A stretch of DNA of 54,407 nucleotides from Deltaproteobacteria bacterium (lineage in GTDB: Bacteria > Desulfobacterota > Syntrophia > Syntrophales > UBA2210), in contig JAPLJO010000167.1 of the NCBI GenBank assembly GCA_026388515.1, forward strand, positions 1-54,407, written 5' to 3'. This document shows positions 20,330 to 42,377 of this stretch, in pieces. The notes below the pieces were generated by a model that was given only the letters and a program-made list of their open reading frames with translations, was not told the origin of the DNA and ran no database searches. A program made the position numbers and the translations under genes. The first letter of the stretch is position 1. Every line of letters starts with the position of its first letter.

Positions 20330-20367
20330 AAGGAATCGGAAGATTCCGTAAACACAAGGGAGGATCC

Positions 20368-22255: not shown

Positions 22256-23719
22256 ATGTCGAACAAGTTCAAGGTACCCCGTAATCCTGAAGAGATCATG
22301 ACATGGATCAACAGCATACCCATGTACCGGGAGGATCATCCGAACGATCTTTCTTTTAAAAGCAAAGAAGCCATTCGAGACATTCAGGATGCATGCCTGG
22401 TAAAACAGATGGACCGCCTGGAAAAATTCAGCCCGTACTACCGGGAGAGATTCAAGGAATGGGGTCTGGATCCCACGTCGATCAAGACCATTGATGATCT
22501 TGAAAAAGTGCCGCTGACCGGCAAGGGCGACTTTATGAAAGACCGCGGCGAATCCTTCAAGCTGGATATGGATTTTGCCAACATCATGGAATACATTCTT
22601 TACGAGATCACGTATACGACGGGCACCACGACGGGGATGCCCTCCCGTTTTTACAACACGACATACGACATGTTCATGCAGTCCTGGATGTTCCGGATCG
22701 GATGCAAGATCTGCTATCTTGAGCCGGACGATATTCTCATGAATCTCTTTCCATTCCACTTCATTCCCCATATCGGGTACTACAAGACGCTCCATTTTGC
22801 CTCTGCAGTGGGGATGACTCTGTGCTTCGGCTTCACCGGCGCGGCTCTGCCCGGATTCCCCCACAACATCCACCGGTCCATGCAGCAGGCCATCGAGGAC
22901 ATTGAAAAGAAGAAAGTCAATGCCATCTCGGGCATTGCTTCCTATATACGCCGTCTCATCATTACGGCCGAAGAGCAGGGCAGGGATTTTTCCCGGATCA
23001 ACAAGATTCAGGCCCTGGGCGAGCCGGTTCCCAAAGGAATGCGCGAAGACATGCGGCGCCGCCTCCAGGGGATGGGTGCCGGAGAAGTCTTTATCAGCAA
23101 CGCCTTCGGTTTTACGGAAGGCCAGACCGCGTTTCAGGAATGCCGGGAGCTCGGAGGGGCCCATAGCGGGACACCCCAGCTTTACTATTTTGAGGCTGTT
23201 GACGAGAGCGGCAAGCGAAAGCCCGATGGTGAACCGGGACTGCTCGCCATCACGCACCTGGACCGGCGGGGCACGTGTCTCCTGCGCTATCTTGTGGGAG
23301 ATATTGTTGCCGTCACGAACGAGCCATGCCCCCACTGCGGACGGAACGATCAGCGGCTCGTCACGGCGGCGGGCAGCACGTATGGGACCCGCACCAAGGA
23401 ACTCATGAAGGTGAAAGGAACCCTGATCAACCCTGAGATTATGAGGGATGCCGTGGCCAATACGCCGGGCGTGATCGAATACCAGTTTATCATCACCAAG
23501 GAGAAAGCCGACGATCCGTATTCGATGGATGTGCTGAAGCTCAAGGTCGGAGCGGATGCCGGCGTCGATCTCAAGAAGCTCGAATCAACCCTCAAGGAGA
23601 AAGTGAAGAGGGCGGTAGAACTCACGCCCAGGGTGGAGTTTGTCCAGTGCTCCGATATCTTCAACCCCGGCCAGACGCTCAAGGCCACCCGTGTGATTGA
23701 CGAGCGGCCCCAGGGATAA
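22256..23719 (+). CDS. Phenylacetate-CoA ligase (PaaK)-family adenylate-forming enzyme
   Basis: YTTGTTTGMP P-loop, FGFTE, GEPGLLAIT, LLRYLVGD, KVKGTLINP, RVIDER. Confidence 0.85.
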   Translation: MSNKFKVPRNPEEIMTWINSIPMYREDHPNDLSFKSKEAIRDIQDACLVKQMDRLEKFSPYYRERFKEWGLDPTSIKTIDDLEKVPLTGKGDFMKDRGESFKLDMDFANIMEYILYEITYTTGTTTGMPSRFYNTTYDMFMQSWMFRIGCKICYLEPDDILMNLFPFHFIPHIGYYKTLHFASAVGMTLCFGFTGAALPGFPHNIHRSMQQAIEDIEKKKVNAISGIASYIRRLIITAEEQGRDFSRINKIQALGEPVPKGMREDMRRRLQGMGAGEVFISNAFGFTEGQTAFQECRELGGAHSGTPQLYYFEAVDESGKRKPDGEPGLLAITHLDRRGTCLLRYLVGDIVAVTNEPCPHCGRNDQRLVTAAGSTYGTRTKELMKVKGTLINPEIMRDAVANTPGVIEYQFIITKEKADDPYSMDVLKLKVGADAGVDLKKLESTLKEKVKRAVELTPRVEFVQCSDIFNPGQTLKATRVIDERPQG

Positions 23720-23776
23720 GCCAATGACAGACTTGTGCGGTCTTGATCCAGGATAATGCACACGAGCGGTGATTGG

Positions 23777-25159
23777 ATGAACCATTATGACGCTGTCATC
23801 ATCGGTGCGGGTATTGCCGGCCTCGGCGTTGCCGGCCTTCTCCAGGGCAGGGGATTGAAGACCGTGGTGCTTGAGAAAAGCAAAACCCCCGGCGGACGAT
23901 CGAAGACCTATGAACTGCCCGGGGGATGGAAGGTGGACACGGGAACCCACTGTGTCGATCTCGGTAAATATTCCGCATGCGCCACCCTGCTGCGGAAGCT
24001 GGGAAAGGAAATCGCCTGGTCGCGCAATCTCGAGGGCTTCATGTTTTATGACGGGGGTACATGGAAACCCATGACGGAGTATCTCGCCCTCAGCCCGAAG
24101 GAGATACGTAAGCTTGCGGAGATGGAGAATTGGATACGGCAGACCGGTGATGAAGAGATCGACGCCCTTGACAATGTGTCGCTGACGAAATTCATTGAGG
24201 AGAAAGTTTCTTCACCCCGGATTGCGGAATTCGTGAAGACGGTGGGCATGGTTCAGACAACTCTGACGGAGGCGGATATTATTTCTGCAGGAGAATTCGT
24301 CGCCATCTACCGGGATTCGCTGCGGCTCAGTTCCCGAAACAATTTTCCCTTTGACAACGTGAGAATGCCCGTCGGCGGGATAGCCACGATGATCGGGGCC
24401 ATGGCGGAGGCATATACGGAATGGGGCGGCGCGCTTCTGCCGGGTACTCCTGTCCGCCGCGTCAACGTGAAGTTGGGCGGGCTTATGGAGGCCGTGACGG
24501 ATAATGAAACGTTCCGGGCTCCCGTCGCAGTTATCGCAGCGCCCATCTGGCACATGCTCAAGGTGCTTTCAATGGAGGAAATGTCCGGATTCGTGCCGGA
24601 GTGGACAGTGCGCATGCGCGGCTTTGAGAGGGAAACAAGCGCATCCATGGGGTTCACCATCGGGACGAAAGCGCCCCTTTTCACAAGCCCATGCTATTTG
24701 TCCGCACGGCGCCTCCCCGATATGGATCTCCCTTTACAGATTCTGGGACACTCGCTGTTCGATGACACCATCGCACCCCCCGGCCACATGGTCGCCTTCA
24801 TGGGCGCCTGCTGCACGCCGGCTCAGGCGATTGACAAGGATTTCCGCGAGAAAACCCTCGCCGCATTCTGGGAATTATTGAAAAAAATGTTCCCCTCAAT
24901 GGAAGCCGATCTCCTGTGGAAGCATGACGGCTTCTATGTGGGAATCGACGGGCTGAGCCGCTCTCCGGGCATGACGGGCCGCTACAGACCGCCGGTGTAT
25001 CTGCCGGAGGTACCCGGACTTTATTTTGCAGGCGACTGCTATACGGGCCGCGGCGTCGGGATGAATGCGGCGGCGAACTCGGCGATGATCTGCGCGGATA
25101 CAATTCTGAAGCAATTCAATACAACTACAAAAACCATCAGGAAGGAGGAATCACAGTGA
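23777..25159 (+). CDS. Phytoene desaturase-family (COG1233) FAD oxidoreductase #1
   Basis: IIGAGIAGL, E...PGGR, VDTGTH, PVGG, VPGLYFAGD...GVGMNAA; track start 23756. Confidence 0.85.
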   Translation: MNHYDAVIIGAGIAGLGVAGLLQGRGLKTVVLEKSKTPGGRSKTYELPGGWKVDTGTHCVDLGKYSACATLLRKLGKEIAWSRNLEGFMFYDGGTWKPMTEYLALSPKEIRKLAEMENWIRQTGDEEIDALDNVSLTKFIEEKVSSPRIAEFVKTVGMVQTTLTEADIISAGEFVAIYRDSLRLSSRNNFPFDNVRMPVGGIATMIGAMAEAYTEWGGALLPGTPVRRVNVKLGGLMEAVTDNETFRAPVAVIAAPIWHMLKVLSMEEMSGFVPEWTVRMRGFERETSASMGFTIGTKAPLFTSPCYLSARRLPDMDLPLQILGHSLFDDTIAPPGHMVAFMGACCTPAQAIDKDFREKTLAAFWELLKKMFPSMEADLLWKHDGFYVGIDGLSRSPGMTGRYRPPVYLPEVPGLYFAGDCYTGRGVGMNAAANSAMICADTILKQFNTTTKTIRKEESQ

Positions 25160-26043
25160 ACGTACAGAAGATCACCGTATTAGGTGCCGGCACCATGGGA
25201 CACGGCATTGCGCAGGCCGCCATAGCGGCGGGATTCAACGCGGTCCTCTATGACGTCAGCCGGGAATTCGTTGACAAGGGAGCGGGCCGGATCAGGAAAA
25301 GCCTCGCAAAACGTGTGGAGAAGGGAAAGCTGAAGGATGAAGAGATGAAGGCGATTCTCTCACGTTTGACGACCGCCACGGACCTCAAGGAAGCGGCCGC
25401 CGGCGCGGATTTTGTGGTCGAGGCTGTTCCCGAAAATCTGGATCTCAAGAAAAAGATCTTCGCGGAGCTGGACAGGATCTGCAAGCCCGAAGCCATTCTG
25501 GCGACGAACACGTCCGTGCTGTCCGTCACTGCCATGGCGGGGGCGACGCAGCGGAAGGACCAGGTGGTGGGCACCCATTTCTTCAATCCCGCCGCGGTCA
25601 TGAAGCTGGTGGAAATCGTGTGCCCGATCGGCGTCTCGGAGAGCATTGTCGCGATTGCACTCGACACCATGAAAAAGATGGGCAAAGTTCCCATCCGTGT
25701 GAAGGACACCCCGGGCTTCATCGTGAACCGCCTCCTGGGACCGTTGTACATGACCGCAGCCCAGATGGTTCTGGAAGGCACGGCATCGGCGGAAGATATT
25801 GACACGGCGATGAAGCTTGGAGCGGGTCATCCCATGGGACCCTGCGAACTGGCCGATTTCGGAGGCTTCGATGTCATCCAGATGGCCCAGGATTCCGTCT
25901 TTGAATATACCCACTCGGAATCGGACAAGCTCAATATCCTTTACCGAAAGATGATCGAGGCGGGACGGCTTGGATTCAAGAACGGCAAGGGTTTCTACGA
26001 TTATCTGCCGGATGGCACCAAGAAACCATTCAAAGTCTTTTAG
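25156..26043 (+). CDS. 3-hydroxyacyl-CoA dehydrogenase
   Basis: GAGTMGHG, EAVPE, ATNTS, HFFNP, PGFIVNRL, HPMGP. Confidence 0.92.
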   Translation: MNVQKITVLGAGTMGHGIAQAAIAAGFNAVLYDVSREFVDKGAGRIRKSLAKRVEKGKLKDEEMKAILSRLTTATDLKEAAAGADFVVEAVPENLDLKKKIFAELDRICKPEAILATNTSVLSVTAMAGATQRKDQVVGTHFFNPAAVMKLVEIVCPIGVSESIVAIALDTMKKMGKVPIRVKDTPGFIVNRLLGPLYMTAAQMVLEGTASAEDIDTAMKLGAGHPMGPCELADFGGFDVIQMAQDSVFEYTHSESDKLNILYRKMIEAGRLGFKNGKGFYDYLPDGTKKPFKVF

Positions 26044-26056
26044 GAGGACGCATACT

Positions 26057-26842
26057 ATGGACTACAAAGATATTCTTGTTACCAAAGATGGAGCAGTAGC
26101 CACCATCGCCATCAATCGCCCCGAGGTCCTCAACGCCATCCGGGACAATACCATGTTTGAAATCCAGGACGCGCTGAATGACATAGAAAAGGATGATGCC
26201 ATTCGCGTGGTAGTGCTCACCGGGACGGGGGACAAAGCGTTTGTGGCGGGTGGCGATATTTCCATCATGGCCAAGGGAGCGGGATACCTCGACGTCATCC
26301 ACGGACTGCCGGCCGGTCAGCAGATCACCTGGAACATTGAACATTTCAGGAAACCGGTCGTAGCGAGGATCAACGGAATTGCCCTGGGCGGCGGAACGGA
26401 GCTGGCCTTGTGCTGCGATATCCGCGTGGCGGCCGATACGGCGATTATGGGAGTCCCTGAAATCAATCTCGGAATTATCCCCGGCTACGGCGGCACCCAG
26501 CGTCTCCCGAGGATTGTCGGCACGGGCATGGCCAAAAAGATGGTGTTGACGGGTGAGCATATCAGCGCCCAGGAGGCGTACCGGATTGGTCTCGTGGATG
26601 TGCTCGCACCAAAAGCAGAACTGGATGATGCCGTCGCCAAGCTGTGCAAACGCATCGCCTCCAAAAGTCCTATAGCCCTCGCCATGGGCAAGGAAGCCAT
26701 CAACATGGGGATGCAGGCGGATTTGCGCACGGGGCTTTCCATTGAAGCCCGCTGCTTCTGCATGTGCTTCGGGTCGGAGGACCGGGTGGAAGGAATGAAT
26801 GCGTTCCTGGAAAAGCGGAAACCCGATTTCAAGGGACGCTGA
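26057..26842 (+). CDS. Enoyl-CoA hydratase (crotonase family)
   Basis: NRPEVLNA, AFVAGGDI, ALGGGTE, PEINLGIIPGYGGTQRL; start after AGGAGG. Confidence 0.92.
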   Translation: MDYKDILVTKDGAVATIAINRPEVLNAIRDNTMFEIQDALNDIEKDDAIRVVVLTGTGDKAFVAGGDISIMAKGAGYLDVIHGLPAGQQITWNIEHFRKPVVARINGIALGGGTELALCCDIRVAADTAIMGVPEINLGIIPGYGGTQRLPRIVGTGMAKKMVLTGEHISAQEAYRIGLVDVLAPKAELDDAVAKLCKRIASKSPIALAMGKEAINMGMQADLRTGLSIEARCFCMCFGSEDRVEGMNAFLEKRKPDFKGR

Positions 26843-26868
26843 TAACCTGTATGATGAGGAGTGATATT

Positions 26869-28053
26869 ATGAGAGAAGTCTTTATCGTGGATGGCGCAAG
26901 GACACCAATCGGCCGGATGGGCGGAGCGCTCGCGGCCTTCCGCCCCGAGGAGCTGGCGGCTTTCGCACTCAAGGGCCTGCTGGATAAAACCAAAATCGAC
27001 CCCTCGATTGTCGAGGACATACTGATCGGCCATGCATGTACGAACAATGCCGCGGTGAACATCGCCCGCTGGGCTGCGCTGAAGGCCGGCTTCCCTGTGA
27101 CGGGGACGGCACAAACCATTGAACGGCAGTGCGGTTCCTCACTTCAAACGATCAATACGGCGGCGGCAAATATCCTTGCCGACTTCGGCGAGGTGTATAT
27201 CGCCGGCGGCTGCGAGAGCTGGAGCAACCAGCCGTATCTGATGGAGCGCCAGAAGGCGCCCTATTCACTTTCTCCGAATGCATGGATTACGCGTGAAGTG
27301 GGGCCGACCCCGGACACGAATGTCCCCATGGGCATCATCGCCGAGGGCCTGGCGTCTGAATGGTCGGTGACGAGAGAGGAACAGGACCGGTGTGCCCTCC
27401 GCAGCCAGGAGTGCGCAATCCGGGCCATTGATGCGGGACACTTCAAGGATGAGATCGTTCCGATTAGTATTCCACAGAAAAAGGGAGACCCGGTGATCTT
27501 CGACCGGGACGAGCACCCGCGGGCTACCAGCATGGAAAAGCTCGCCGCACTGAGGCCGGTTTTCAAGAAGGACGGCACCGTGACCGCGGGCAACTCATCG
27601 GGACTGAACGACGGGGGTGTGGCCGTGCTGCTGATGTCCCGGCAGAAATGCGAAGCGCTGACACTCAAGCCGCTGGGGCGATTTGTGGCATGTGCCCTGG
27701 CGGGAGTGGAGCCCCGGTACATGGGAATCGCGCCGGCGTATGCGGTTCCCAAGGTGCTGGCAAAAGCGGGCCTGAAACTCGAAGACATGTCCGTCATCGA
27801 ATGCAATGAGGCCTTCGCCGCCCAGACTCTCGCCGTGATGAAAGAGCTGGCCAAAAATGGCCACAAAGTGGAAGAGGATAAATGGAACCCCAACGGCGGA
27901 GCCATTGCCTTTGGACATCCGAACGGCATGAGCGGCGGTCGCCTGGCCCTGGCAGTCCTCCATCAGCTTCGCCGGACAGGTGATCGCTATGGTCTCGCGA
28001 CGCTCTGCATCGGCGGCGGCCAGGGAATAGCCACCATCTTCGAGAGCGTGTAA
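26869..28053 (+). CDS. Acetyl-CoA C-acyltransferase (canonical thiolase)
   Basis: RQCGSS, NEAF, GHP, CIGGGQG, all catalytic residues present; start after GAGGAG. Confidence 0.92.
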   Translation: MREVFIVDGARTPIGRMGGALAAFRPEELAAFALKGLLDKTKIDPSIVEDILIGHACTNNAAVNIARWAALKAGFPVTGTAQTIERQCGSSLQTINTAAANILADFGEVYIAGGCESWSNQPYLMERQKAPYSLSPNAWITREVGPTPDTNVPMGIIAEGLASEWSVTREEQDRCALRSQECAIRAIDAGHFKDEIVPISIPQKKGDPVIFDRDEHPRATSMEKLAALRPVFKKDGTVTAGNSSGLNDGGVAVLLMSRQKCEALTLKPLGRFVACALAGVEPRYMGIAPAYAVPKVLAKAGLKLEDMSVIECNEAFAAQTLAVMKELAKNGHKVEEDKWNPNGGAIAFGHPNGMSGGRLALAVLHQLRRTGDRYGLATLCIGGGQGIATIFESV

Positions 28054-28086
28054 ATCCACCACAGCCGGTGACCAAGGGAGGTAGAC

Positions 28087-29232
28087 ATGTCAGATAGAGT
28101 TGCCATTGTAGGGGTGGCCCAAACACGGTTTGCTCCGAAGCGCCCGGACGTCAACTACGGAGAGATGGCATACGAAACCATCTCGCAGGTGCTCCGGCAG
28201 ACGAACCTGGCGCTGCCCGATGATATCGACAATGCCATCAGCTGTTCCCATGATATCTGGGATGGCCAGACCATTTCCAACATCAGCATCACGGATGTCA
28301 TCGGCGGACATCTCAGGACAGAGGAGAAAATGGCTCTCGATGGTTCGACAGCCGTTTATTATGGTGCGGTGGGCATCCTGTCGGGAGAATATTCCTGCAC
28401 CCTCCTGATGGCCCACACGAAAATGTCCCAGACGAACAGGAACATCGTCAACAATGTTGCATTCGATCCCATCTACAGCAGAATGCTGGGATTCGACTAC
28501 ACGTCCGCAGCGGCGCTGCAGGCAAGGCGCTACATGTACAAGTACGGCATCACCCGCGCGCAGATCGCCGAAGTCGTGGTGAAGAATCTGTCCAATGCCA
28601 GATTCAATCCATCGGCCCATCAATCCGGGGAAATTTCCATCGCGGATGTGCTGAGCTCTCCCGTGGTGGCTGCCCCGATCCACAGGCTGGACATTGCCCC
28701 CGATACCGATGGAGCCGTCGCCGTCATCCTCGCCTCGGAAGAGCGGGCAAAATCCATCACGGACAAACCGGTCTGGCTTCTGGGGATGGGGACCAGCTAT
28801 GACGCCCATTACCTGGGTGACCGCGATCTGGCGGACTGCCGCGCGCTGCAGCAAGCCGCAGAGCGCGCATATCGTATGGCCGGCATCAGGAATCCCCGCC
28901 GGTCTGCGGATCTCGCGGAAGTCGGTGATGAATTTTCGTATCAGGAGCTGCTCTGGATGGAAGGATTGGGCCTGTGTGACAAGGGAGATGCCGGTCGACT
29001 TGTCGAAAGCGGCGCCACTGCCATCGGCGGAAAACTTCCCGTGAATCCATCGGGCGGACTTTTATCGGGTGTACCGATCAATGTGGCCGGCCTGAACAGG
29101 GTCGCGGAGGCGGTGCTCCAATTGCGCGGTGAGGCGGGAGAACGCCAGGTCAAGGGTGCGAAGATCGCCATAGCCCAGGGACATAGCGGATTCTGCGGAC
29201 AGCACCAGTGTGTGCTGGTGCTCGGCAACTGA
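28087..29232 (+). CDS. Thiolase-superfamily protein lacking catalytic Cys/His (Ltp4-like)
   Basis: Thiolase-fold motifs (DGAVA, NPSGG), but MALDGSTA at the Cys position and GVP at GHP. Confidence 0.8.
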   Translation: MSDRVAIVGVAQTRFAPKRPDVNYGEMAYETISQVLRQTNLALPDDIDNAISCSHDIWDGQTISNISITDVIGGHLRTEEKMALDGSTAVYYGAVGILSGEYSCTLLMAHTKMSQTNRNIVNNVAFDPIYSRMLGFDYTSAAALQARRYMYKYGITRAQIAEVVVKNLSNARFNPSAHQSGEISIADVLSSPVVAAPIHRLDIAPDTDGAVAVILASEERAKSITDKPVWLLGMGTSYDAHYLGDRDLADCRALQQAAERAYRMAGIRNPRRSADLAEVGDEFSYQELLWMEGLGLCDKGDAGRLVESGATAIGGKLPVNPSGGLLSGVPINVAGLNRVAEAVLQLRGEAGERQVKGAKIAIAQGHSGFCGQHQCVLVLGN

Positions 29233-29247
29233 AAGACGGAGGAAGAT

Positions 29248-30417: not shown

Positions 30418-30428
30418 GGAGGAAACCT

Positions 30429-30908: not shown

Positions 30909-30959
30909 CGCACCACGAAGAGCGAATGCCTCAACCTATTGAGAAAGGAGATATGTGGC

Positions 30960-31415: not shown

Positions 31416-31430
31416 CCGAGGAGACGTTCC

Positions 31431-32453: not shown

Positions 32454-32482
32454 ATCAAGATGAAAGAGAGGGCTGCAACGAC

Positions 32483-34009: not shown

Positions 34010-34033
34010 TCTTAAGAAAGGTGGAAACTCATT

Positions 34034-35257: not shown

Positions 35258-35292
35258 CTGACGGAAGAAGAAAAAAGAGACAGGGGAAGCCA

Positions 35293-35443
35293 ATGGGAAG
35301 AAAAGTGATTGTCACCTGCGCACTGGTCGGTTCGGCGACGCGCAAAAATCAGAACCCCAGTACGCCCTATGACATCGGCCCTCGACCACGATCCGGTAAC
35401 TCCGGATGAAGCCCGGGCGATCATGGGGACCACCAGGCGATGA
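35293..35443 (+). pseudogene. Internally deleted beta-keto acid cleavage enzyme (BKACE/DUF849, Kce-like) relic
   Basis: N-terminus MGRKVIVTCALVGSATRKNQNPSTPY joined out of frame to C-terminus ...ALDHDPVTPDEARAIMGTTRR*; both ends resemble DUF849 termini. Confidence 0.7.
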
Positions 35444-35474
35444 AAGAAATCAACATGCATGGAGAGGAGCGCAT

Positions 35475-35930
35475 ATGACTGAATGGTTAAAAAGCGTTGA
35501 ACCGTTGACACTGAAGGGGCAAATCGCCGTTCCCTATACATGGTGGGTCGGTGAGACGGGCGGCAGGTTCATGGCTGCCCTCAGGGACCATCGGAAGATT
35601 CTCGGAACAAAATGCAGCTCCTGCAAAACGGTGTATGTGCCGGCACGCAAGAGTTGCGGCCGCTGCTTCATTGACATGGAGGAGTGGGTGGATATCGCCG
35701 ATGAGGGCGTCATTCAGGCCTATACGATCGTGCATTACGGGCATCCCGTGCAGCCTGCAAAGCCGCCGTTCGCGTACGCACTGATCAGGCTCGACGGGGC
35801 CGATGTGGGCTTTCTGCACGTGATAAAAAAAGATCTGGACAGGATCAAAAACGGCCTCAGGGTGAAGGCAAAATTCAGGGCGGAGCGAACGGGGACCATC
35901 CTTGACATCGACTCCTTTGAACTCATGTAG
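35475..35930 (+). CDS. DUF35 Zn-ribbon/OB-fold protein
   Basis: CSSC...PARKSCGRC, RLDGAD; start after GAGGAG (track starts at 35406). Confidence 0.88.
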   Translation: MTEWLKSVEPLTLKGQIAVPYTWWVGETGGRFMAALRDHRKILGTKCSSCKTVYVPARKSCGRCFIDMEEWVDIADEGVIQAYTIVHYGHPVQPAKPPFAYALIRLDGADVGFLHVIKKDLDRIKNGLRVKAKFRAERTGTILDIDSFELM

Positions 35931-35950
35931 GCGCCTGTGGAGGAACTGAA

Positions 35951-37093
35951 ATGGACAAAGCGGCAATAGTCGGAGTCGCGCAGATAAAATATGAAAGAAG
36001 AAAGAAGGACCAGATCTTCGCCGATATGGTGTTTGATGTGACCCGGGAGGCCCTTGATGATGCAGGCCTTACCATCCATGACGTGGACAATGTCGTCACG
36101 GTGTCGAATGACTTTTTTGACGGCCGGACGATATCGGGCATGGCGGTCGGTGATGCGTGCGGGGGCCAGGACAAGAATATCTCGACGGTTTCCGGTGACG
36201 GCACGTTTGGAGCCTTCTACGGCCTCATGCGGGTCCTTTCCGGATACAAGGCCACCATCGTCGTCGCGCACTATAAAGGCAGTGAAGGCGATATCAATAT
36301 AACGACCAACGGCATGTTCGACCCGGTCTTTCATCGCCATCTCGGGATAGACGCCGTATCCTCGGCGGCTCTGCAGGCGAACGCCTATATGACCAGATAC
36401 GGCATACGTGAAGAGGATATTGCGCAGGTATCAGTGAAGAATCACGGCAACGCAAAGAATAATCCCTTCGCCCAGCTTCCGATGGATATCACAGTAAATG
36501 ATGTCATGAAGTCGAGAAAAATAGCTGAGCCGCTGAAGCTTCTCGACTGCTGTCCCATCAGTGATGGGGCTGCGGCGGTCATTATCGCGGGCGAGGACAT
36601 TGCAGCAAAATGCAGAAAAAAGCCCGTGTGGGTGAGGGGAGTCGCGCACTGCTGCGAGGAATATTTCCTCGGTGACCGTGACCTTTCCAATCCGGTTGCG
36701 CTGCGTGAAGCGGCAACGCGGGCATACGCGATGGCAGGAATCAGGAACCCGATCGAAGATATCGATGTGGCCGAAGTGCTTGAGCCGTTCAGTTACATGG
36801 AACCCCTGTGGCTTGAAGGGCTGGGGTTCTGCGAACCGGGAGCGGGCTGCAGTCTCATCACAAAAGGAATTACCGTCATGGGTGGGAAGCTTCCCGTCAA
36901 TCCATCCGGCGGCGCACTGTCGGCAAACCCTGTGCTTGTGGCCGGGCTTGCGAGGCTGATTGAAGCCGCGCTCCAGGTCCGGGGCGAAGCCGGGGCACGA
37001 CAGGTGAAGAACGCCGACACGGCGCTCGCGCAGGGCTTCAACGGACCGTGCGGTCAAAGCCACTGCGTGTGGATCATCAGCGGGACGAAGTGA
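35951..37093 (+). CDS. Thiolase-superfamily protein lacking catalytic Cys (Ltp4-like)
   Basis: VSGDGTFG at the Cys position, EVLEPFSY, NPSGGALSANP. Confidence 0.8.
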   Translation: MDKAAIVGVAQIKYERRKKDQIFADMVFDVTREALDDAGLTIHDVDNVVTVSNDFFDGRTISGMAVGDACGGQDKNISTVSGDGTFGAFYGLMRVLSGYKATIVVAHYKGSEGDINITTNGMFDPVFHRHLGIDAVSSAALQANAYMTRYGIREEDIAQVSVKNHGNAKNNPFAQLPMDITVNDVMKSRKIAEPLKLLDCCPISDGAAAVIIAGEDIAAKCRKKPVWVRGVAHCCEEYFLGDRDLSNPVALREAATRAYAMAGIRNPIEDIDVAEVLEPFSYMEPLWLEGLGFCEPGAGCSLITKGITVMGGKLPVNPSGGALSANPVLVAGLARLIEAALQVRGEAGARQVKNADTALAQGFNGPCGQSHCVWIISGTK

Positions 37094-37101
37094 GGTGACC
37101 A

Positions 37102-38262
37102 ATGGCACGAAGAGTAGCTATCGTAGGAACGGGACAGACATACCACAAGAGCCACAGGCCTGATGTGACGTCGCGGGAAATGATCAAGGAAGCCGTGTCA
37201 AGCGCGCTTGCCGATGCCGAACTGACCATCAGGGATATCGATGCCATTGTCATCGGCAATATGGACCACTTCGAGTCCATCAACTACGTTGACACCTACA
37301 GCGTTGAAGGCTCCGGCGGCGTGATGAAGCCGATCATGAAGGTGACGACCGGCGGCACCACGGGGGCGACGGTGGCAATCGCGGCATACTACCATGTGTC
37401 TTCAGGTTTCTTTGACAGGGTGCTGGCGATCGGATTCGAGAAGAACTCCGAATCGGATACCACGGGAGCAATCATCACCTGCTCCGATCCGGTGTGGGAT
37501 CGGTTCTCGTATTCCGGGGCGATACCGAGCCTTGCCACGGAGGCAACGGCATACATGGAGAAGTACGGTGCGACCCAGGAAGATGCCGCGCTTATCGCGG
37601 AGCGGGACCGCGGCCATGCGATGAATAATCCTTACGCGCACCTGAGGCGGCCCCTTACCGTTGCGGATATCATGGCGTCGCCGATGCTTGCGTATCCGAT
37701 CAAGCTGGGTGACATCTGCCCGAGATCGGATGGCGCCTGCGCCATCGTGCTGGCGGCTGACGGTATAGCCCAGAAAATTACCGGCAAGCCGGCATGGTTC
37801 AAGGCCGCCGCCGTGAGACATACCTACACCTGGTTCGGCGACTCCACGGATTATAACAAGGGACTCGTATCGATGCAGCGCGCCTCAAAGGACGCCTATG
37901 CGCAGGCAGGAATCACGAAGCCCGTTGACGAGATCGATGTGGCGGAGCTCTATCTTCCCTATACGTGGGCCGGCCTCAAGTGGATTGAGGATATCGGATT
38001 CTGCGGTCCCGGGGAGGCCTCGAAATTTGTAGGCGACGGGCACACCCACATGGGCGGCAAGCTCCCCATCAACCCGTCGGGGGGCGTGATTTCAACAAAC
38101 TGCATCGGGGCAACAGCCCTGCTCCGGGTTGCGGAAGCGGCCATCCAGGTCATGGGCAAAGGCGATACAAGGCAGGTCCCCGATGTCAGGAATGCCATCG
38201 CCACAGGATTCGGCGGCTGCTTCTGGAGTGATATCGTCATTCTAAGCTCAGAGAGACCATAA
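37102..38262 (+). CDS. Thiolase-superfamily protein, Ltp3-like putative aldolase
   Basis: TTGGTTGAT, ELYLP, NPSGGVISTNCIGATA; paralogue of 29248-30417. Confidence 0.8.
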   Translation: MARRVAIVGTGQTYHKSHRPDVTSREMIKEAVSSALADAELTIRDIDAIVIGNMDHFESINYVDTYSVEGSGGVMKPIMKVTTGGTTGATVAIAAYYHVSSGFFDRVLAIGFEKNSESDTTGAIITCSDPVWDRFSYSGAIPSLATEATAYMEKYGATQEDAALIAERDRGHAMNNPYAHLRRPLTVADIMASPMLAYPIKLGDICPRSDGACAIVLAADGIAQKITGKPAWFKAAAVRHTYTWFGDSTDYNKGLVSMQRASKDAYAQAGITKPVDEIDVAELYLPYTWAGLKWIEDIGFCGPGEASKFVGDGHTHMGGKLPINPSGGVISTNCIGATALLRVAEAAIQVMGKGDTRQVPDVRNAIATGFGGCFWSDIVILSSERP

Positions 38263-38279
38263 CAGGAAGGGGAACAACC

Positions 38280-38759
38280 ATGTCGACACAGAACAGGCAA
38301 GGTGAACTGATGCAGTTAACCTTCGCATACCCGATGCCGTACGAATGGTCCATCGGGCTCTACGGAAGCAGGTTCTTTCAGGAAATAAAGGAGAAGAGAC
38401 GTTTCATCGGCATCAAGTGCAATGGCTGCGGTATGGTGTACGTTCCGCCGCGCCGTGTGTGTGGCCCCTGTTTCAAAGAGCTGTCAGAGCTCGTTCCTCT
38501 GTCCGACACGGGCGTGATAACGGCGTTCTCCGTGGTGAATTATCCTTTTATCGATCCGAACACGGGACTTCAGCGACCCATTCCCTATACGTACGGCTAT
38601 ATCAGGCTCGACGGCGCCGACAATATCTTTTCACACATCATCAATGAAACGGACCTCGGCAGAATCCATGTCGGGATGAAGGTGCGGGCGGTATTCAAGG
38701 AACCCGATCGAATGCAGGGCAACATCCAGGACATCAAATATTTTGATATCATCAGCTGA
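38280..38759 (+). CDS. DUF35 Zn-ribbon/OB-fold protein
   Basis: CNGC...PPRRVCGPC, RLDGAD, VGMKV. Confidence 0.88.
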   Translation: MSTQNRQGELMQLTFAYPMPYEWSIGLYGSRFFQEIKEKRRFIGIKCNGCGMVYVPPRRVCGPCFKELSELVPLSDTGVITAFSVVNYPFIDPNTGLQRPIPYTYGYIRLDGADNIFSHIINETDLGRIHVGMKVRAVFKEPDRMQGNIQDIKYFDIIS

Positions 38760-38762
38760 ATC

Positions 38763-40088
38763 GTGGATATGCATTCACCGACACTAAGCTCTGCAGTTGC
38801 GACGGGGGGCAGATTCCGCTGGTTCATTGTCGCATGGTTCTTTCTCATGCTTCTCATCGTGTATATGGACAGGGTGAACCTGGCCATGGCAGCGCCGCTG
38901 ATCATGAATGAATTTAACCTGAGGCCTTCCATGCTCGGCCTCGTGATGAGTGGCTTTACGATCGGATATACGATACTGCTCTTCCCCGGAGGATTCCTGG
39001 TTTCACGGTTTTCCGCCCGGAAGATCCTGGCGGCCATCATGGCGCTGCGATCAGCCGCAAGCGTTCTTACGGGATGTGCGTGGGGTTTTGTCAGCCTCAT
39101 GGTCTTCAGGATCGGCTTCGGGCTGGCGGAGGGTCCCATGCTGCCGGCCATCAATGCCACCGTCAACCACTGGATGCTCAATCGTGAAAAAGCCACCGCG
39201 GCGGCGCTCTACATCACGGCGCTGCCTCTGGGCATCATCTCTGGAAACATTGCAAGCGGCTATGCCATCAATGCGTTTGGCTGGCGATTCATGTTTTATG
39301 TGTTCGGCGCACTCGGTCTTGCAGCGGGGGGCCTGGGCTGGATCATCATTCGGGACACACCGGCGGAACATCCTGCAATCTCGCGCCGGGAACTGGAGCG
39401 CATCGAAGCGGACTATCATCCCGCGGTCGACGGGTCGCCCGGCGGCTCCACGTTTCGCCAGTTGATGAAAGATCCCTGGTTATGGGTCAATGCCGCCTAC
39501 AACTTTTTCTACAGCTTTCCCTTCTGGGCCAATCTGCACTGGCTGCCGACCTATTTCGTGATGGCGAGGGGCACCTCTATTCTCAAGTCGGGATATCTTT
39601 CCTCCGTGCCGTGGATATCGGGTCTGCTGGGGCTCCTGGTGCTCGGCGCCCTGTCGGACAGAGTCGGGAGAAAATATCGCGGCAATTGGATGGCTGCCTG
39701 CCAGTTTTTATCCATCCCTTTTACGGCTTATGCGGTCGTGACCCCGTCGGTTATCATCAGCCTGGTATGCTTTTCCGTTTCTTTGTTTTTTGTCCTGGGC
39801 TCGATGAGCATAGGTACCGCCCTCATCTGGGAACTCTTCGACAGGGCCGACGTGGCCAAGGCCTACGGGCTGCTTGCGTCATGGATGACGGGGGCGGGTA
39901 TTCTCGCGCCCTATATTTTGGGCATCATCCTCGAGAAAACCAATTCATTCAATATGGCCTATTATATTTTTTCCTGCTGCGCATTTCTGGCAGGCTGCAC
40001 TGCGGTGGCACTGCATGTCAGGGAACGACGCGTCAGGGAAATGAGGATTCATCGAAGTCATGAAATGCAGACGGCTTCAGCTACGTAG
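38763..40088 (+). CDS. MFS transporter (anion:cation symporter family)
   Basis: YMDRVNL, RIGFGLAEGP, about 12 hydrophobic segments, GALSDRVGRK. Confidence 0.9.
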   Translation: MDMHSPTLSSAVATGGRFRWFIVAWFFLMLLIVYMDRVNLAMAAPLIMNEFNLRPSMLGLVMSGFTIGYTILLFPGGFLVSRFSARKILAAIMALRSAASVLTGCAWGFVSLMVFRIGFGLAEGPMLPAINATVNHWMLNREKATAAALYITALPLGIISGNIASGYAINAFGWRFMFYVFGALGLAAGGLGWIIIRDTPAEHPAISRRELERIEADYHPAVDGSPGGSTFRQLMKDPWLWVNAAYNFFYSFPFWANLHWLPTYFVMARGTSILKSGYLSSVPWISGLLGLLVLGALSDRVGRKYRGNWMAACQFLSIPFTAYAVVTPSVIISLVCFSVSLFFVLGSMSIGTALIWELFDRADVAKAYGLLASWMTGAGILAPYILGIILEKTNSFNMAYYIFSCCAFLAGCTAVALHVRERRVREMRIHRSHEMQTASAT

Positions 40089-40103
40089 CCGGGAAAGGAA
40101 GCC

Positions 40104-41510
40104 ATGAAAAAGAAAATTGACACCATTATTATCGGAGCCGGGATTGCCGGATTGGGAGTGGCAGCCATCCTGAGCAGGGAAGCTCACCAGAAAGTCCTCG
40201 TCATTGACCGTTTTCCAAAGTCCGGCGGACGCATGATGAGCTATGATGGATATCCGGCAAAAGGATGGCGCATTGAAATCGGCCTGCACATGATCGAGCT
40301 GGGTGAAAAATCTTCCTGCGATGCCCTCAACCGGCGAGTGGGGAAAACGGTATCATGGGGGCCGTTCAGCGATACAGTCGATATCTGGAACGGAGAGAAG
40401 TTTGTCAGCGTCGCCGACCTCGTTCCTATGAGCCGGGAGGACAAGGTTGCCTTCCGAAACCTTGTCCAGAAGATTGCCACCCTGAAAGATCATGAGATTG
40501 AGGCATGGGATAACCGCTCCCTTGAAGAATGGCTGGCAGAGCATGTCGAGCAGCCGCCGGTGCGGGAGCTCTTTACAGACCTGGGAATGATTATGACCAC
40601 CATTCCCCGGGCCATTGACATGGCAGCCGGGGAAGTCCTGTACATTGCCAGGGATAATTTGCTGAAGACGCAACAGGTCCTGCAGGCCAGCTTCCCTCTC
40701 GACGGCATGGAGGGGGTTACAAGGGGTCTCGCCGAAGTGGTCCGGGACGCAGGCGGAGAGATCCGGCTCAACTGCGACGTGCAGGAAGTCGTCATCAAGG
40801 ACGGCCGGGCCATCGGAGTCCGCATTCCCACCGGGCGCCATCCCTATGAAGAAGAGTATCGCATCCCGGAGACGGAAACCATTCATGCGGATCGTGTGGT
40901 GTGTGCTTTGCCGATCTATCAACTCCAGAAGCTCCTCGATTTCAACTCCGATACAAGCCCTCTCCCGCGGTGGTGGCGAAAGCGTATCACTGACATTCAG
41001 CATGAAGTGACCGGTCTTATCGGGTTCATGCTTGGCCTTTCGGAACCGGTCGTTGACCCGGCGAAGAAATGCTTCTTCTCTGCTTTGAAGACGCGGCATG
41101 CGGGTTTTCCTTTCCAGGGATTCCCGGCCTCCAATTTTACCGATCATGTCGCACCTCCGGGCAAACAGCTTCTTCATACGGACATCGTGGTCGAGCACGA
41201 AGAGGCCTCGGACAAATTCAAGCGGGAGAGACTCCTTGCCCTTCTATGGGAGGACCTCAAGGATATGTTCCCCGGCATTGAAGGCAAAATGGAATGGCGC
41301 CTGCCATACTATGTGGATGGGTGCGATGGTCTTGCCCGGCAACCGGGCCTGGTGGGCAATTTCAAACCGGGCCTGAAAGCTCCGGGCATTCCAAATCTTT
41401 ATTTTGCCGGCGATACGTATCTGGGCCGCGGTCTGGCCATCAACAGCGCCGCACTGAGTGGAATGAACTGCGCGGATCTCATCCTCGCAGAACTGAAAAA
41501 AAATAAATGA
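40104..41510 (+). CDS. Phytoene desaturase-family (COG1233) FAD oxidoreductase #3
   Basis: IIGAGIAGL, SGGR, EIGLH, APPGK, IPNLYFAGD...GLAINSA; closest to 23777-25159. Confidence 0.85.
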   Translation: MKKKIDTIIIGAGIAGLGVAAILSREAHQKVLVIDRFPKSGGRMMSYDGYPAKGWRIEIGLHMIELGEKSSCDALNRRVGKTVSWGPFSDTVDIWNGEKFVSVADLVPMSREDKVAFRNLVQKIATLKDHEIEAWDNRSLEEWLAEHVEQPPVRELFTDLGMIMTTIPRAIDMAAGEVLYIARDNLLKTQQVLQASFPLDGMEGVTRGLAEVVRDAGGEIRLNCDVQEVVIKDGRAIGVRIPTGRHPYEEEYRIPETETIHADRVVCALPIYQLQKLLDFNSDTSPLPRWWRKRITDIQHEVTGLIGFMLGLSEPVVDPAKKCFFSALKTRHAGFPFQGFPASNFTDHVAPPGKQLLHTDIVVEHEEASDKFKRERLLALLWEDLKDMFPGIEGKMEWRLPYYVDGCDGLARQPGLVGNFKPGLKAPGIPNLYFAGDTYLGRGLAINSAALSGMNCADLILAELKKNK

Positions 41511-41522
41511 AAGGAACGGGTC

Positions 41523-42377
41523 ATGATTAAGAAACTATGCGTTATCGGCGCAGGAACGATGGGAGCCGGCATCGCCCAGGTCGCTGCAGAAAACGGTATC
41601 GAAGTGGTCCTGCGGGATACGGAAGATGCGTTTGTTCAGCGGGGAGTCGGGATCATCAGGAATTTTATCGGCAAGAAACTTGAAAAGGGAAAGATTTCGC
41701 AGGATGCTCATGATCAGATAATCGGCCGTGTCCGGGGGACGACAAATCCGGAAGAGGGCTTTTCCGGCGTCGATATGGTCATCGAAGCTGTCTTCGAAAG
41801 CCTGCCTCTCAAGCAGAAGATCTTTGCGGAAGCCGACCGTCTCTGCAATCCCGGGGTCATTCTGGCATCCAACACATCGACCTTGAGTATTGCGAAGATC
41901 GCTTCGGAAACTGCAAAGCCCGAGAGGGTCATTGGAACCCATTTTTTCAGTCCCGTCCCTGTCATGCGCCTGGTGGAAGTCATCCGTGGAGATAAAACCG
42001 CCGATCGTGTTGTCACTGCCACCCTGGATTTCTGCAAAGCCATCGGGAAAACCCCCATCCTGGCGAAAGACATTCCCGGCTTCATCGTGAATCGTTTTCT
42101 ATGCCTTCTTTACAACGAGGCGGCCAACCAGATCCATCAGGGACTGGCCACTGCGGAAGACATAGACCTGGGCCTGAAACTTGGCTCCAACCATCCCATG
42201 GGACCGGTGGAGATCATGGACCTTGCCGGAGTGGACGTGGTCAACAATGCGCTGAAGGCCATGTATGAAATGACCGGCGAAGAGCGGTATAAGCCATCCC
42301 CGATTTTCGAGGAGATGATCCGGGCCAACCGTCTCGGCCGGAAAACCGGGCGCGGCTTCTATGAATATGCAAAGTAG
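41523..42377 (+). CDS. 3-hydroxyacyl(butyryl)-CoA dehydrogenase
   Basis: GAGTMGAG, EAVFE, ASNTS, HFFSP, PGFIVNR, HPMGP, LGRKTGRGFY. Confidence 0.92.
   Translation: MIKKLCVIGAGTMGAGIAQVAAENGIEVVLRDTEDAFVQRGVGIIRNFIGKKLEKGKISQDAHDQIIGRVRGTTNPEEGFSGVDMVIEAVFESLPLKQKIFAEADRLCNPGVILASNTSTLSIAKIASETAKPERVIGTHFFSPVPVMRLVEVIRGDKTADRVVTATLDFCKAIGKTPILAKDIPGFIVNRFLCLLYNEAANQIHQGLATAEDIDLGLKLGSNHPMGPVEIMDLAGVDVVNNALKAMYEMTGEERYKPSPIFEEMIRANRLGRKTGRGFYEYAK

Follow-up and report, generated by a model that had tools for sequence, protein, structure and literature searches.

To our knowledge, the genes by which strict anaerobes mineralize methyl-branched and isoprenoid carbon are largely unknown. The carbon pool concerned includes phytol, terpenoid acids, archaeal lipids, and the side chains of sterols and hopanoids. 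The solutions known to us require O2 (α-oxidation, P450), molybdenum hydroxylases, glycyl-radical enzymes, or biotin carboxylases. In the Atu/Liu pathway for acyclic terpenoid acids, for instance, the 3-methyl block on β-oxidation of the coenzyme A (CoA)-activated isoprenoid acid is dealt with by a biotin carboxylase and a lyase. A different principle is known from steroid degraders, in which the aldol-lyases Ltp3 and Ltp4 are essential for the degradation of branched, not straight, sterol side chains (PMC6273163, citing Wilbrink 2012). Here, we describe a catabolic-type operon on the + strand of a 54,407-nucleotide stretch of DNA from a Deltaproteobacteria bacterium of the Syntrophales (assembly GCA_026388515.1, contig JAPLJO010000167.1, positions 1 to 54,407; hereafter the window), which combines thiolase-like proteins devoid of a nucleophilic Cys with a putative CrtC-like hydratase and complete sets of β-oxidation enzymes.

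The two sets of β-oxidation enzymes, the Cys-less complexes with their conserved Tyr, and the pairing of a tertiary-carbon type of hydratase with a desaturase-like flavoprotein therefore favor a methyl-branched, isoprenoid-type carboxylic acid as the substrate. Our tentative reading, to which we give a little less than an even chance, is that the operon encodes the TetR-controlled, CoA-dependent, and O2-independent catabolism of such an acid in a strictly anaerobic, probably syntrophic, bacterium. We propose independence from O2 on the basis of the taxonomic labels that the relatives carry. In the order of steps and activities that we infer, a PaaK-type ligase would convert the acid to its CoA thioester, and unbranched stretches would be shortened by ordinary β-oxidation, for which the operon encodes two acyl-CoA dehydrogenases, hydratases of the MaoC and crotonase types, two canonical thiolases, and two 3-hydroxyacyl-CoA dehydrogenases. 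β-Oxidation would come to a stop at a C3 methyl branch, since the hydrated product of desaturation there is a tertiary alcohol, which dehydrogenases cannot oxidize. Where the branch is near the thioester, an acyl-CoA dehydrogenase and a hydratase would carry out the desaturation and hydration; at positions not activated by the thioester, a CrtI/CrtD-like flavoprotein and the cofactor-free CrtC/AttH-type hydratase could do so. The 3-hydroxy-3-methylacyl intermediate would then be cut by retro-aldol cleavage to release acetyl- or propionyl-CoA, which would remove the block. The putative catalysts of this cut are two paralogous complexes. In each, a b subunit with the Tyr would be joined by an a subunit, which is degenerate, and by two DUF35 zinc-ribbon/OB proteins.

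The thiolase-like proteins are encoded in two adjacent pairs, a1 (28087..29232) with b1 (29248..30417) and a2 (35951..37093; 47% identical to a1) with b2 (37102..38262). All four are of the SCP2 type and contain the Thiolase_C_1 domain. We compared their active-site residues with those of BbsB (7pxp), zebrafish SCP2-thiolase (6hsj), and an SCP2-type thiolase encoded at 4372-5664 of the window, in which the Cys nucleophile and the two catalytic His, one in HDCF and one in GHP, are all present. All three residues are missing from a1, b1, a2, and b2, where Gly or Ala is found in place of the Cys (Gly in b1). An earlier note on this DNA, made by a model from the sequence alone, had called these pairs Cys-less, and the description is accurate for all four proteins, with both catalytic His lost as well. 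The loss extends to the orthologues: among sequences covered to more than 85% and identical to 55% or more (n = 58; 19 a1, 20 b1, 9 a2, and 10 b2), Cys occupies the nucleophile position in 0 of 58. The two subunit types are distinguished by the first position of the HDCF equivalent, which is Tyr in 30 of 30 b subunits (b1, 20/20; b2, 10/10) versus 4 of 28 a subunits. At this position, a1 has Gly (17), Cys (1), or Ser (1) (n = 19) and a2 has Leu (4), Tyr (4), or Ser (1) (n = 9), with the GHP His found in 4 of the 9 a2 sequences. The motif of the b subunits reads YEPA in b1 and YLPY in b2, and a Thr-Asn-Cys replaces GHP in b1 and b2 of the window and in 28 of the 30 b subunits overall (b1, 18/20; b2, 10/10).

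The invariant Tyr is the feature that connects the b subunits to known aldolases. SCP2 thiolases carry HDCF at this motif, and in TcLtp2 (YDHF) and CtSal (YDCY), the Tyr is the catalytic base, with Tyr344 (TcLtp2) or Cys304 (CtSal) as the acid (PMC12329534). The b subunits thus appear to keep the aldolase base while differing in the rest of the motif, and we regard them as candidate retro-aldolase subunits in which the conserved Asn-Cys at the GHP position could serve as the acid; a1 is probably a non-catalytic partner. A phmmer search of the PDB with the thiolase-like proteins returned BbsB, zebrafish SCP2-thiolase, and archaeal thiolases as the best matches (E 1e-38 to 1e-46), with Ltp2 lower (1e-21 to 1e-25). 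The AlphaFold2 model of b1 has the SCP2-thiolase fold with a pLDDT of 85.8. At the family level, the a and b types presumably resemble the NCBIfam families PRK07937 and PRK08313 of Ltp3/Ltp4.

Each thiolase-like pair is accompanied by two DUF35 proteins (zf-ChsH2 plus OB_ChsH2_C in Pfam; a C4 zinc ribbon and an OB fold), with which it would form a heteromeric assembly. DUF35 proteins 1 (30429..30908) and 2 (30939..31415) follow b1, and the latter adjoins the CrtC-like gene in 24 of 30 loci. DUF35 protein 3 (35406..35930), whose orthologues align from residue 13 and whose start codon is therefore probably later than listed, precedes a2, and DUF35 protein 4 (38280..38759), with a weak match to BbsA (E 9e-8), follows b2. 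A CxxC-x10-CxxC ribbon is found in each of the four, and all are free-standing, with no fusion to a hydratase.

The same arrangement recurs elsewhere in the source genome (G000), which comprises 2.68 Mb in 175 contigs at an estimated completeness of 100% and contains 27 matches to the thiolase-like model NF006180. Five more a-b-DUF35 modules were found, on contigs C39 (two), C142, C24, and C28 (loci L101-L104). In all seven modules of the genome, the a gene directly precedes the b gene, and mean identities are 43% between a subunits, 42% between b subunits, and 32% between a and b subunits. The b-subunit Tyr is kept in 5 of 5 additional modules, two of which have a Cys one column off the nucleophile site and may still be thiolases. 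The surrounding genes encode ligases, acyl-CoA dehydrogenases, MaoC or crotonase proteins, TetR regulators, an old yellow enzyme (OYE)-type reductase, and, on C39 and C142, a β-keto-acid cleavage enzyme (BKACE). The cassette on C28 has the order TetR / ligase-glyoxalase-acyl-CoA dehydrogenase-MaoC-a-b-DUF35, and within the 12 kb examined, it contains no 3-hydroxyacyl-CoA dehydrogenase or thiolase. Such a layout would be predicted for direct cleavage of the hydrated enoyl-CoA by the a/b complex, the pattern of ChsE-ChsH-Ltp2. Together with the b-subunit Tyr at the base position of Ltp2/Sal, cassettes of the C28 type strengthen the retro-aldol role that the earlier note had suggested by homology to Ltp-type proteins, the activity itself being proposed from sequence.

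The CrtC-like gene (31431..32453) encodes a putative cytoplasmic hydratase of the CrtC/AttH fold, with a PF07143 score just over the cut-off (25.8 versus 22.5 bits) and no signal peptide at its N-terminus. Its relatives are annotated as "hypothetical" or "predicted secreted hydrolase". The AlphaFold2 model (pLDDT 95.6, built with 37 homologues) has the two-barrel lipocalin-like fold, and Foldseek matched it to AttH (2ich, E 2e-13, TM 0.66), kievitone hydratase (7a0q, E 2e-11, TM 0.58), fungal Diels-Alderases (E ∼1e-11), and a 25-phosphosteroid lyase (9g4c, E 7e-8, TM 0.55). D192 and W207 do not vary across the 37 sequences, and W209 reaches a conservation of at least 90%. In a profile alignment, the invariant YHDHNWGN...WYWG matches LDREW...WDW of AttH and YDRQWGN...WTW of kievitone hydratase. 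The spacing of D192/W207/W209 (15/17) equals that of D268/W283/W285 in RgCrtC. The latter three residues are essential by mutagenesis, and on C13-C18 terpenoids that bear an acid or thioester head group, CrtC is reported to hydrate the terminal prenyl unit (PMC12402844). In bioRxiv 10.1101/2025.10.20.683597, AttH-like hydratases are reported for tertiary carbons only, and the gene for the AttH-like Hgs overlaps that of the desaturase Ted, with which it adds tertiary hydroxyls to saturated archaeal isoprenoid chains. The fold and the Asp...W-x-W motif thus agree with the prenyl hydratase proposed in the earlier note, whereas hydration activity rests on the sequence and the model. A second CrtC-like paralogue, ∼32% identical, is encoded elsewhere in the genome (C147, 4677-5783, - strand; locus L105) as the last gene of a methylmalonyl-CoA-mutase type operon with a mutase, a B12-binding subunit, MeaB, and a corrinoid adenosyltransferase; it is of the type found in the window's own family.

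Of the three flavoproteins encoded by the operon, FAD2 (32483..34009) is the one tied to the hydratase. Its gene starts 29 nucleotides past the CrtC-like gene and is its downstream neighbor in 18 of 30 loci; a complex prediction for the two proteins, run without controls, gave a score of 0.00 and was weighed neither for nor against their pairing. FAD2 is a distant member of the CrtI/CrtD family (crtI_fam, 72 bits; cut-off, 238), and a search of the ESM Atlas returned generic "amine oxidase/phytoene desaturase family" clusters only. FAD1 (23756..25159; HpnE, 79 bits; cut-off, 283) belongs to the CrtI/HpnE/amine-oxidase superfamily, and FAD3 (40104..41510; HpnE, 75.5 bits; cut-off, 283) is its paralogue, 32% identical and encoded 15 kb away. 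All three are Amino_oxidase/NAD_binding_8 proteins of 467-508 aa whose best NCBIfam matches are HpnE, crtI_fam, CrtD, and carotenoid isomerase (40-79 bits versus cut-offs of 238-640) and whose best PDB matches are 3ka7 (an uncharacterized Methanosarcina oxidoreductase), PF1083, and CrtI (E ∼1e-8). The COG1233 label used in the earlier note is compatible with these Pfam and NCBIfam matches. COG1233-type flavoproteins that oxidize without O2 beside isoprenoid double bonds include CtmAB (PMC4109377) and the Δ24-steroid desaturase (PMC11061730), and by analogy FAD1-3 may work in the same way. Just upstream of the operon, at 12108-16044 (+), the window encodes two proteins of 249 and 253 aa that have no Pfam family, along with a ferredoxin-domain protein (303 aa) and a GMC-like flavoprotein that weakly matches carotenoid isomerase. 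In locus L050, the CrtC-like gene is directly preceded by genes for a GMC-like orthologue (52% identical) and a Fer4 protein, and the block in the window may be a further hydratase-linked redox module.

The gene set is conserved well beyond this contig. When one genome was scanned for each species, 597 stretches proved to encode a relative, and 78 loci were retained with 10-kb flanks; many of these are cut by contig ends or by the flank. Genes of a 14-gene core were counted as same-strand tblastn matches with coverage above 50% and an identity of 50% or higher. Among the loci with a CrtC-like protein of at least 50% identity (n = 30), DUF35 protein 2 lies upstream in 24, b1 is present in 20, FAD2 in 18, and b2 in 9. 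At least eight of the 14 core genes are strictly colinear in 16 of the 30 loci, with two more flagged only for a second FAD2-like match, and six loci contain all 14. A related genome (G031) keeps 23 of 25 window genes in the same order on one contig, with an acyl-CoA dehydrogenase in place of the transporter, an extra ligase, and a shifted flavoprotein gene. The cluster is absent from six loci, of which two contain CrtC-like and FAD2 genes only (L024 and L040), three a lone paralogue (L031-L033), and one is a 1.9-kb contig (L043). In a set of 41 related genomes, the CrtC-like probe matched 10, the source genome included. Close orthologues (52-75%) were found in 3 of the 40 others, all from other families of the same order, and in the window's own family, the 3 matches in 24 genomes are only 29-32% identical. 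All sources are metagenome-assembled genomes (MAGs), with no cultured organism among them, labeled Syntrophales, Syntrophaceae, "Deltaproteobacteria", Smithella, Desulfocicer, or, in four bins, Spirochaetota/Leptospirales. The patchy spread and the MAG labels from more than one phylum, in which binning errors are possible, fit a mobile functional unit.

Variation around the core was also observed. Orthologues of FAD1 occur only in L024 and L037, and one of FAD3 (74%) in L035, a locus that also encodes a Liv-type ATP-binding cassette (ABC) system. Ordinary AMP-binding ligases are present in L022, L025, L027, and L037, and the cluster of L027, from a Smithella-labeled relative, includes a CruF-like gene of the carotenoid-hydratase family (PF04240). 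Locus L020 has an OYE-type 2,4-dienoyl-CoA-reductase-like gene and a ferredoxin-domain gene. Three Spirochaetota/Leptospirales-labeled MAGs (L039, L041, and L042) carry the whole 14-gene core at 55-85% identity and, between the TetR gene and the first dehydrogenase gene, a chemoreceptor gene (methyl-accepting chemotaxis protein), which suggests that the cells swim toward the substrate by chemotaxis and that the cluster has moved from phylum to phylum. Separately, five loci from Dehalococcoidia/Chloroflexota MAGs (L052, L054, L060, L063, and L067) encode 2 to 6 CrtC-like paralogues each, without thiolase-like modules.

The earlier note had described 19 intact, tightly spaced, co-oriented genes and one relic over ∼20 kb, 22256-42377. 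The gene-level description is correct: the 19 open reading frames (ORFs) on the + strand form an unbroken chain, all 19 have Pfam families at E ≤ 0.001 and the domains stated, 17 of 18 junctions overlap or span at most 36 nucleotides, and the remaining junction of 148 nucleotides holds the relic, a BKACE gene with an internal deletion. The size was underestimated. Six further + strand genes, which encode a TetR regulator, two acyl-CoA dehydrogenases, a MaoC protein, a PP2C-type phosphatase-like protein, and a PHP-family metallohydrolase, lie directly upstream at spacings of at most 85 nucleotides and are syntenic with the rest in other genomes. A gap of 443 nucleotides precedes the TetR gene at 16487, and a terminator-like hairpin (42484..42510, +; 10 pairs, 6 of them G-C, with a T-rich tail) follows the last gene. 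The unit is therefore ∼26 kb and ∼25 genes long, with its start near 16487. The hairpin is weak evidence for a terminator because the scan found 16 such sites versus 9.8 ± 3.2 in shuffled sequences, a count not above the shuffles; the count of the promoter scan did not exceed shuffles either. Rfam gave no match over the whole window, and the sequencing runs that contain the stretch, five DNA rows from 2 studies labeled freshwater sediment metagenome, one of which may be the source, include no listed RNA run. None of the 19 ORFs reached an NCBIfam equivalog cut-off, every such match being far below it, and the sole NCBIfam pass in 22256-42377 is that of the two canonical thiolases to a generic acetyl-CoA C-acyltransferase subfamily model.

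The probable first gene of the unit encodes the TetR-family regulator (16487..17089; TetR_N with a YsiA-like TetR_C_4), which has colinear orthologues of 42-68% identity in seven loci (L014, L026, L035, L039, L041, L042, and L046). It is followed by a long acyl-CoA dehydrogenase of 602 aa with an Acyl-CoA_dh_C tail (17086..18894), which has syntenic orthologues and NCBIfam matches that are all below cut-off, and by a 152-aa MaoC-type (R)-specific enoyl-CoA hydratase (18979..19437; PF01575, E 2.6e-31), also syntenic. The next gene (19445..20329) encodes a PP2C/SpoIIE-type (PPM) phosphatase-like protein (Pfam SpoIIE, E 2.1e-5) with intact metal-binding motifs, DG, GDS, TDG, and DD being invariant across 7 orthologues; it is syntenic at 36-42% identity and evolves faster than its neighbors (60-90%). 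The second acyl-CoA dehydrogenase (20347..21507, about 386 aa) is listed as an ORF from 20158, but its orthologues align from residue 64 of the long ORF; its best NCBIfam match is the acryloyl-CoA reductase AcrC (349 bits; cut-off, 640). The PHP-family metallohydrolase (21523..22170; PHP plus PHP_C) is syntenic in 11 loci at more than 80% coverage, with an NCBIfam match to the CehA/McbA domain of 57.5 bits (cut-off, 80).

Within the 19-gene chain, the ligase gene comes first (22256..23719). The product is a PaaK-superfamily acid-CoA ligase (AMP-binding plus AMP-binding_C_2) whose best NCBIfam match is the flexirubin ligase FlxY (158 bits; cut-off, 520) and which matches phenylacetate-CoA ligase (4r1l, E 3e-25) and 2-hydroxyisobutyryl-CoA synthetase (6hdw, E 1e-14) in the PDB. 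3-Hydroxyacyl-CoA dehydrogenase 1 (25156..26043; 3HCDH_N/3HCDH) is nearest to 3-hydroxybutyryl-CoA dehydrogenase in NCBIfam (325 bits; cut-off, 408), and dehydrogenase 2 (41523..42377), the last gene, has orthologues in L013, L035, and L038. The crotonase-type enoyl-CoA hydratase (25970..26842) matches ECH_1 from residue 40 (E 1e-72) and is nearest to short-chain enoyl-CoA hydratase. Canonical thiolases 1 (26764..28053) and 2 (34034..35257) score 440 and 380 bits against TIGR01930 (cut-off, 240.55) and keep the catalytic Cys, the GHP His, and the second Cys (CIGGG in thiolase 1). As for DUF35 protein 3, the true start codons of the crotonase and thiolase 1 are probably later than listed: alignment with orthologues begins at residues 30 and 36, which would put the starts near 26057 and 26869. 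The major facilitator superfamily (MFS) transporter (38763..40088; MFS_1; TIGR00893, 202 bits; cut-off, 395) has no counterpart in the 78 loci; G031 has the acyl-CoA dehydrogenase mentioned above at this position. The BKACE relic (PF05853; 35293..35440) was delineated by tblastn with the intact BKACE of L020. Positions 35293-35370 encode residues 1-26 (88% identity over 26 aa) and 35381-35440, in another frame, residues 267-286 (75% over 20 aa). The middle of the ∼275-aa TIM barrel has been deleted, and no intact copy is present in the window; intact BKACE genes are found on C39 and C142 and in L020, L026, and L051.

Two other regions of the window were noted. A SDR-family protein, an acyl-CoA dehydrogenase, the intact SCP2-type thiolase used above as a reference (Cys, HD, and GHP), a nitroreductase, an AMP-binding ligase, and a PAS/sigma-54 activator are encoded at 1323-11399 (+). 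Assignment of the first 16 kb to the same pathway was considered and dropped, as no synteny with the cluster was found in 78 + 8 loci except for the one GMC-like gene in L050. Downstream, 46302-50127 (+) encodes a split transketolase (N-half, 46302-47141; C-half, 47355-48365) followed by an SCP2-domain protein and a 3β-HSD/epimerase-family protein; an ORF of 358 aa on the opposite strand (46140-47216) is probably spurious.

Several observations weigh against the catabolism of a methyl-branched acid as outlined. Retro-aldol cleavage of a 3-hydroxy-3-methylacyl-CoA leaves a CoA-free methyl ketone, and continuation of the chain after the cut is unexplained because the operon contains no carboxylase, the source genome contains no Hydantoinase_B (acetone-carboxylase type) gene, and BKACE, which might return a β-keto acid to the CoA pool, is a relic in the window. 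Carboxylation of the ketone was rejected on these grounds, the carboxyltransferases of the genome being on other contigs only. The kinship of the b subunits with known aldolases is limited as well. SCP2-thiolase and BbsB take ranks 1-3 in a Foldseek search with the b1 model, with Ltp2 at 19 and Sal at 36 (TM 0.82-0.87 for all), YEPA and YLPY have only the Tyr in common with YDHF and YDCY, and there is no Cys or His at the third motif position that would provide the second catalytic residue of the Ltp2/Sal type. Because the b1 model is nearest to true thiolases and Ltp2 and Sal rank lower, the b subunits look like products of an independent loss of Cys rather than members of the Ltp2 or Sal clades. 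As for the flavoproteins, scores against the CrtI/CrtD family (TIGR02734 and equivalogs) are 61-72 bits versus a cut-off of 238, Pfam Amino_oxidase is the only model passed, and only FAD2 is in the conserved core. Membership in the CtmAB/Δ24-steroid desaturase class was rejected: the covalent-flavin mononucleotide consensus common to both, G-F-[LR]-x-[NS]-[TL]-H-A (PMC11061730), is found in 0 of 3, a looser G-[WY]-x-x-x-x-G-x-H is present, and FAD1 and FAD3 lie apart and not as two adjacent paralogous subunit genes. In addition, the dehydrogenases and the crotonase resemble enzymes of the short-chain (C4) type. Small soluble acids, including aryl and alicyclic ones, would suit the PaaK-type ligase, the MFS transporter, and the Liv-type ABC system of L035, and the scheme has no role for the PPM phosphatase or the PHP hydrolase.

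The interpretation offered in the earlier note, a not yet described anaerobic pathway that imports and de-branches an isoprenoid or steroid side-chain lipid, is therefore supported in part. It had named conserved gene order elsewhere as a check set beforehand, and the order is kept in G031 and, for at least eight core genes, in 16 of 30 loci. Orthology to a characterized cluster was not found among the NCBIfam equivalogs or in the literature, and our literature search, outside which most subscription journals lie, turned up no description of the combination and no paper on this cluster or on heteromeric Cys-less thiolase-like/DUF35 modules in Syntrophales. The scope in terms of lipids was too narrow. 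A branched substrate is favored, but a long lipid or a sterol fits the transporters and the PaaK-type ligase less well than a smallish soluble acid, and the substrate was deduced rather than observed. The putative importer is seen only in the window and lies outside the conserved core.

In steroid systems, bulky substrates are accommodated by heteromeric subunits, and one alternative is that the operon degrades the side chain of a bulky polycyclic acid (for instance, a bile, other steroid, or hopanoid acid), with a and b acting like Ltp2/Sal or Ltp3/Ltp4 and the flavoproteins acting on the ring or side chain. All characterized Cys-less, DUF35-bound aldolases known to us work on steroid side chains (PMC12329534; PMC6273163), the combination of acyl-CoA dehydrogenase, MaoC, aldolase, and thiolase resembles sterol side-chain enzyme sets, and the CrtC-like fold also matches the 25-phosphosteroid lyase. 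We consider this reading unlikely given that the b subunits are no nearer to Ltp2/Sal than to true thiolases, that the window contains no kinase, molybdenum hydroxylase, or ring-degradation gene, that the genome is small, and that the MFS and ABC transporters and the PaaK-type ligase differ from the types of steroid systems. An AMP ligase at 6774 with a weak match to steroid-22-oyl-CoA synthetase (242 bits; cut-off, 900) is not syntenic with the cluster. The closeness to BbsB (E 4e-38; Foldseek rank 3) leads to another alternative, in which the substrate is an alkyl-substituted alicyclic or aryl-alkyl acid (naphthenic-type acids, succinate adducts) and a/b/DUF35 works like BbsAB on α-branched 3-oxoacyl-CoAs. 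The weak BbsA match of DUF35 protein 4, the PaaK-type ligase, the below-cut-off matches of the acyl-CoA dehydrogenases to cyclohexane-1-carbonyl-CoA dehydrogenase models, and the 2,4-dienoyl-CoA-reductase-like OYE gene in the L020 cluster are in keeping with it. Thiolysis, however, needs the nucleophilic Cys that is absent from 58 of 58 a/b sequences, the operon lacks a glycyl-radical enzyme, a CoA-transferase, and a ring-cleaving hydrolase, and there would be no role for a CrtC/AttH-type hydratase, a type reported for tertiary carbons only (bioRxiv 10.1101/2025.10.20.683597). We hold this possibility, too, to be improbable.

Complete β-oxidation sets with short-chain Hbd/Crt-like enzymes and a YsiA/FadR-like TetR regulator could also indicate a redundant island for straight-chain or unsaturated fatty acids, in which the Cys-less proteins are inactive scaffolds and the flavoproteins and the hydratase act on ordinary double bonds; Syntrophales relatives expressed long-chain fatty-acid degradation enzymes in a methanogenic culture (PMC12583861). 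Under this reading, however, the four thiolase-like genes and the four DUF35 genes, together 8 of the core of 14, would be idle despite 70-90% identity across loci, the b subunits keep an invariant Tyr and the Asn-Cys, and hydratases of this family need trisubstituted alkenes according to PMC12402844 and bioRxiv 10.1101/2025.10.20.683597, all of which makes such an island very unlikely. The methanogenic limonene pathway (lss/lrc, PMC12583861) was set aside as a different gene set. Finally, the operon might build a polyene- or isoprenoid-like lipid, with the thiolase-like and DUF35 proteins condensing units in the manner of the archaeal thiolase/HMG-CoA synthase/DUF35 complex or PhlABC. The FlxY match of the ligase is of this kind, the condensing DUF35 complexes 6esq, 5m3k, and 9vbo are among the structural neighbors of b1, and other components are related to carotenoid enzymes. 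Since the cluster has no ketosynthase, acyl carrier protein, prenyltransferase, or HMG-CoA synthase, the named condensing enzymes need the Cys that the a/b proteins have lost, and the regulator, the transporter, the acyl-CoA dehydrogenases, and the chemoreceptor gene of the Spirochaetota-labeled loci are catabolic features, we regard biosynthesis as the least probable of the explanations and its chance as slight.

We therefore return to the breakdown of a methyl-branched, isoprenoid-type acid, of which a bolder version can be formulated. It is rather unlikely in our estimate and holds that syntrophic anaerobes degrade isoprenoid chains (acids derived from phytol or terpenoids, or archaeal phytanyl chains) by a route that uses neither O2 nor a carboxylase, in which CrtI-like desaturases and the CrtC/AttH hydratase would turn branches into tertiary alcohols that a new class of heteromeric a/b/DUF35 aldolase would cut, the module having been multiplied (at least 7 copies in the 2.7-Mb genome) and exchanged between phyla. 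In either version, the operon provides a defined, conserved, and testable set of genes for breaking down branched carbon in a different way and points to an uncharacterized heteromeric class of Cys-less thiolase-fold proteins that takes up a notable share of a small genome. If the proposed activities are true, these genes would serve as markers for isoprenoid turnover in sediments and digesters, and the proteins would be new C-C lyases and cofactor-free hydratases for biocatalysis.

Comparison with the described systems places each part of the operon beside a known relative. Relative to the Atu pathway, the operon has no carboxylase, and the carboxyltransferase genes of the genome are elsewhere. 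CtmAB, the limonene dehydrogenase, is described as COG1233/phytoene-dehydrogenase-like (PMC4109377), and it and the Δ24-steroid desaturase function independently of O2 in terpenoid and steroid side-chain catabolism. These proteins have about 550-566 aa versus 467-508 aa here, and the operon has neither adjacent α/β pairs nor ferredoxin/reductase genes. CrtC/CrtD of spirilloxanthin biosynthesis, kievitone hydratase, and Hgs-Ted share with the present locus a cofactor-free two-barrel hydratase with Asp and W-x-W, located beside a desaturase-type gene, and chemistry at a tertiary isoprene carbon, which is proposed for the present locus. The differences are the catabolic, CoA-dependent context here and a soluble cytoplasmic protein without an anchor or signal peptide; moreover, FAD2 is far below the CrtD and CrtI cut-offs, and Ted is a radical SAM enzyme and not a flavoprotein.

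The thiolase-like proteins have three sets of relatives. BbsAB, the archaeal thiolase/HMG-CoA synthase/DUF35 complex, and PhlABC have the same DUF35-bound SCP2-type thiolase fold and provide the best sequence and structure matches, but all have a catalytic Cys, which is found in none of the 58 a/b proteins. ChsE1E2-ChsH1H2-Ltp2 of actinobacteria and Shy-Sal of Comamonas share the Cys-less SCP2-thiolase fold, the Tyr at the first HDCF position, the DUF35 partner, and the acyl-CoA dehydrogenase and MaoC genes alongside. In contrast to these systems, which use a homodimer and a DUF35 domain fused to the hydratase, the operon encodes a, b, and two free-standing DUF35 proteins, its motifs are YEPA/YLPY instead of YDHF/YDCY, and its proteins are no nearer to Ltp2/Sal in sequence and fold than to true thiolases. 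The window comes from a presumed strict anaerobe, and there are no steroid genes close by. Ltp3/Ltp4 of Rhodococcus rhodochrous, which act on C24-branched sterol side chains and were compared by description (PMC6273163), are alike in being two adjacent thiolase-like genes tied to the removal of an alkyl branch. The component superfamilies and the aldolase-assisted β-oxidation of steroid degraders are already known; what is new is how the components are combined, together with the a/b architecture and an anaerobic host.

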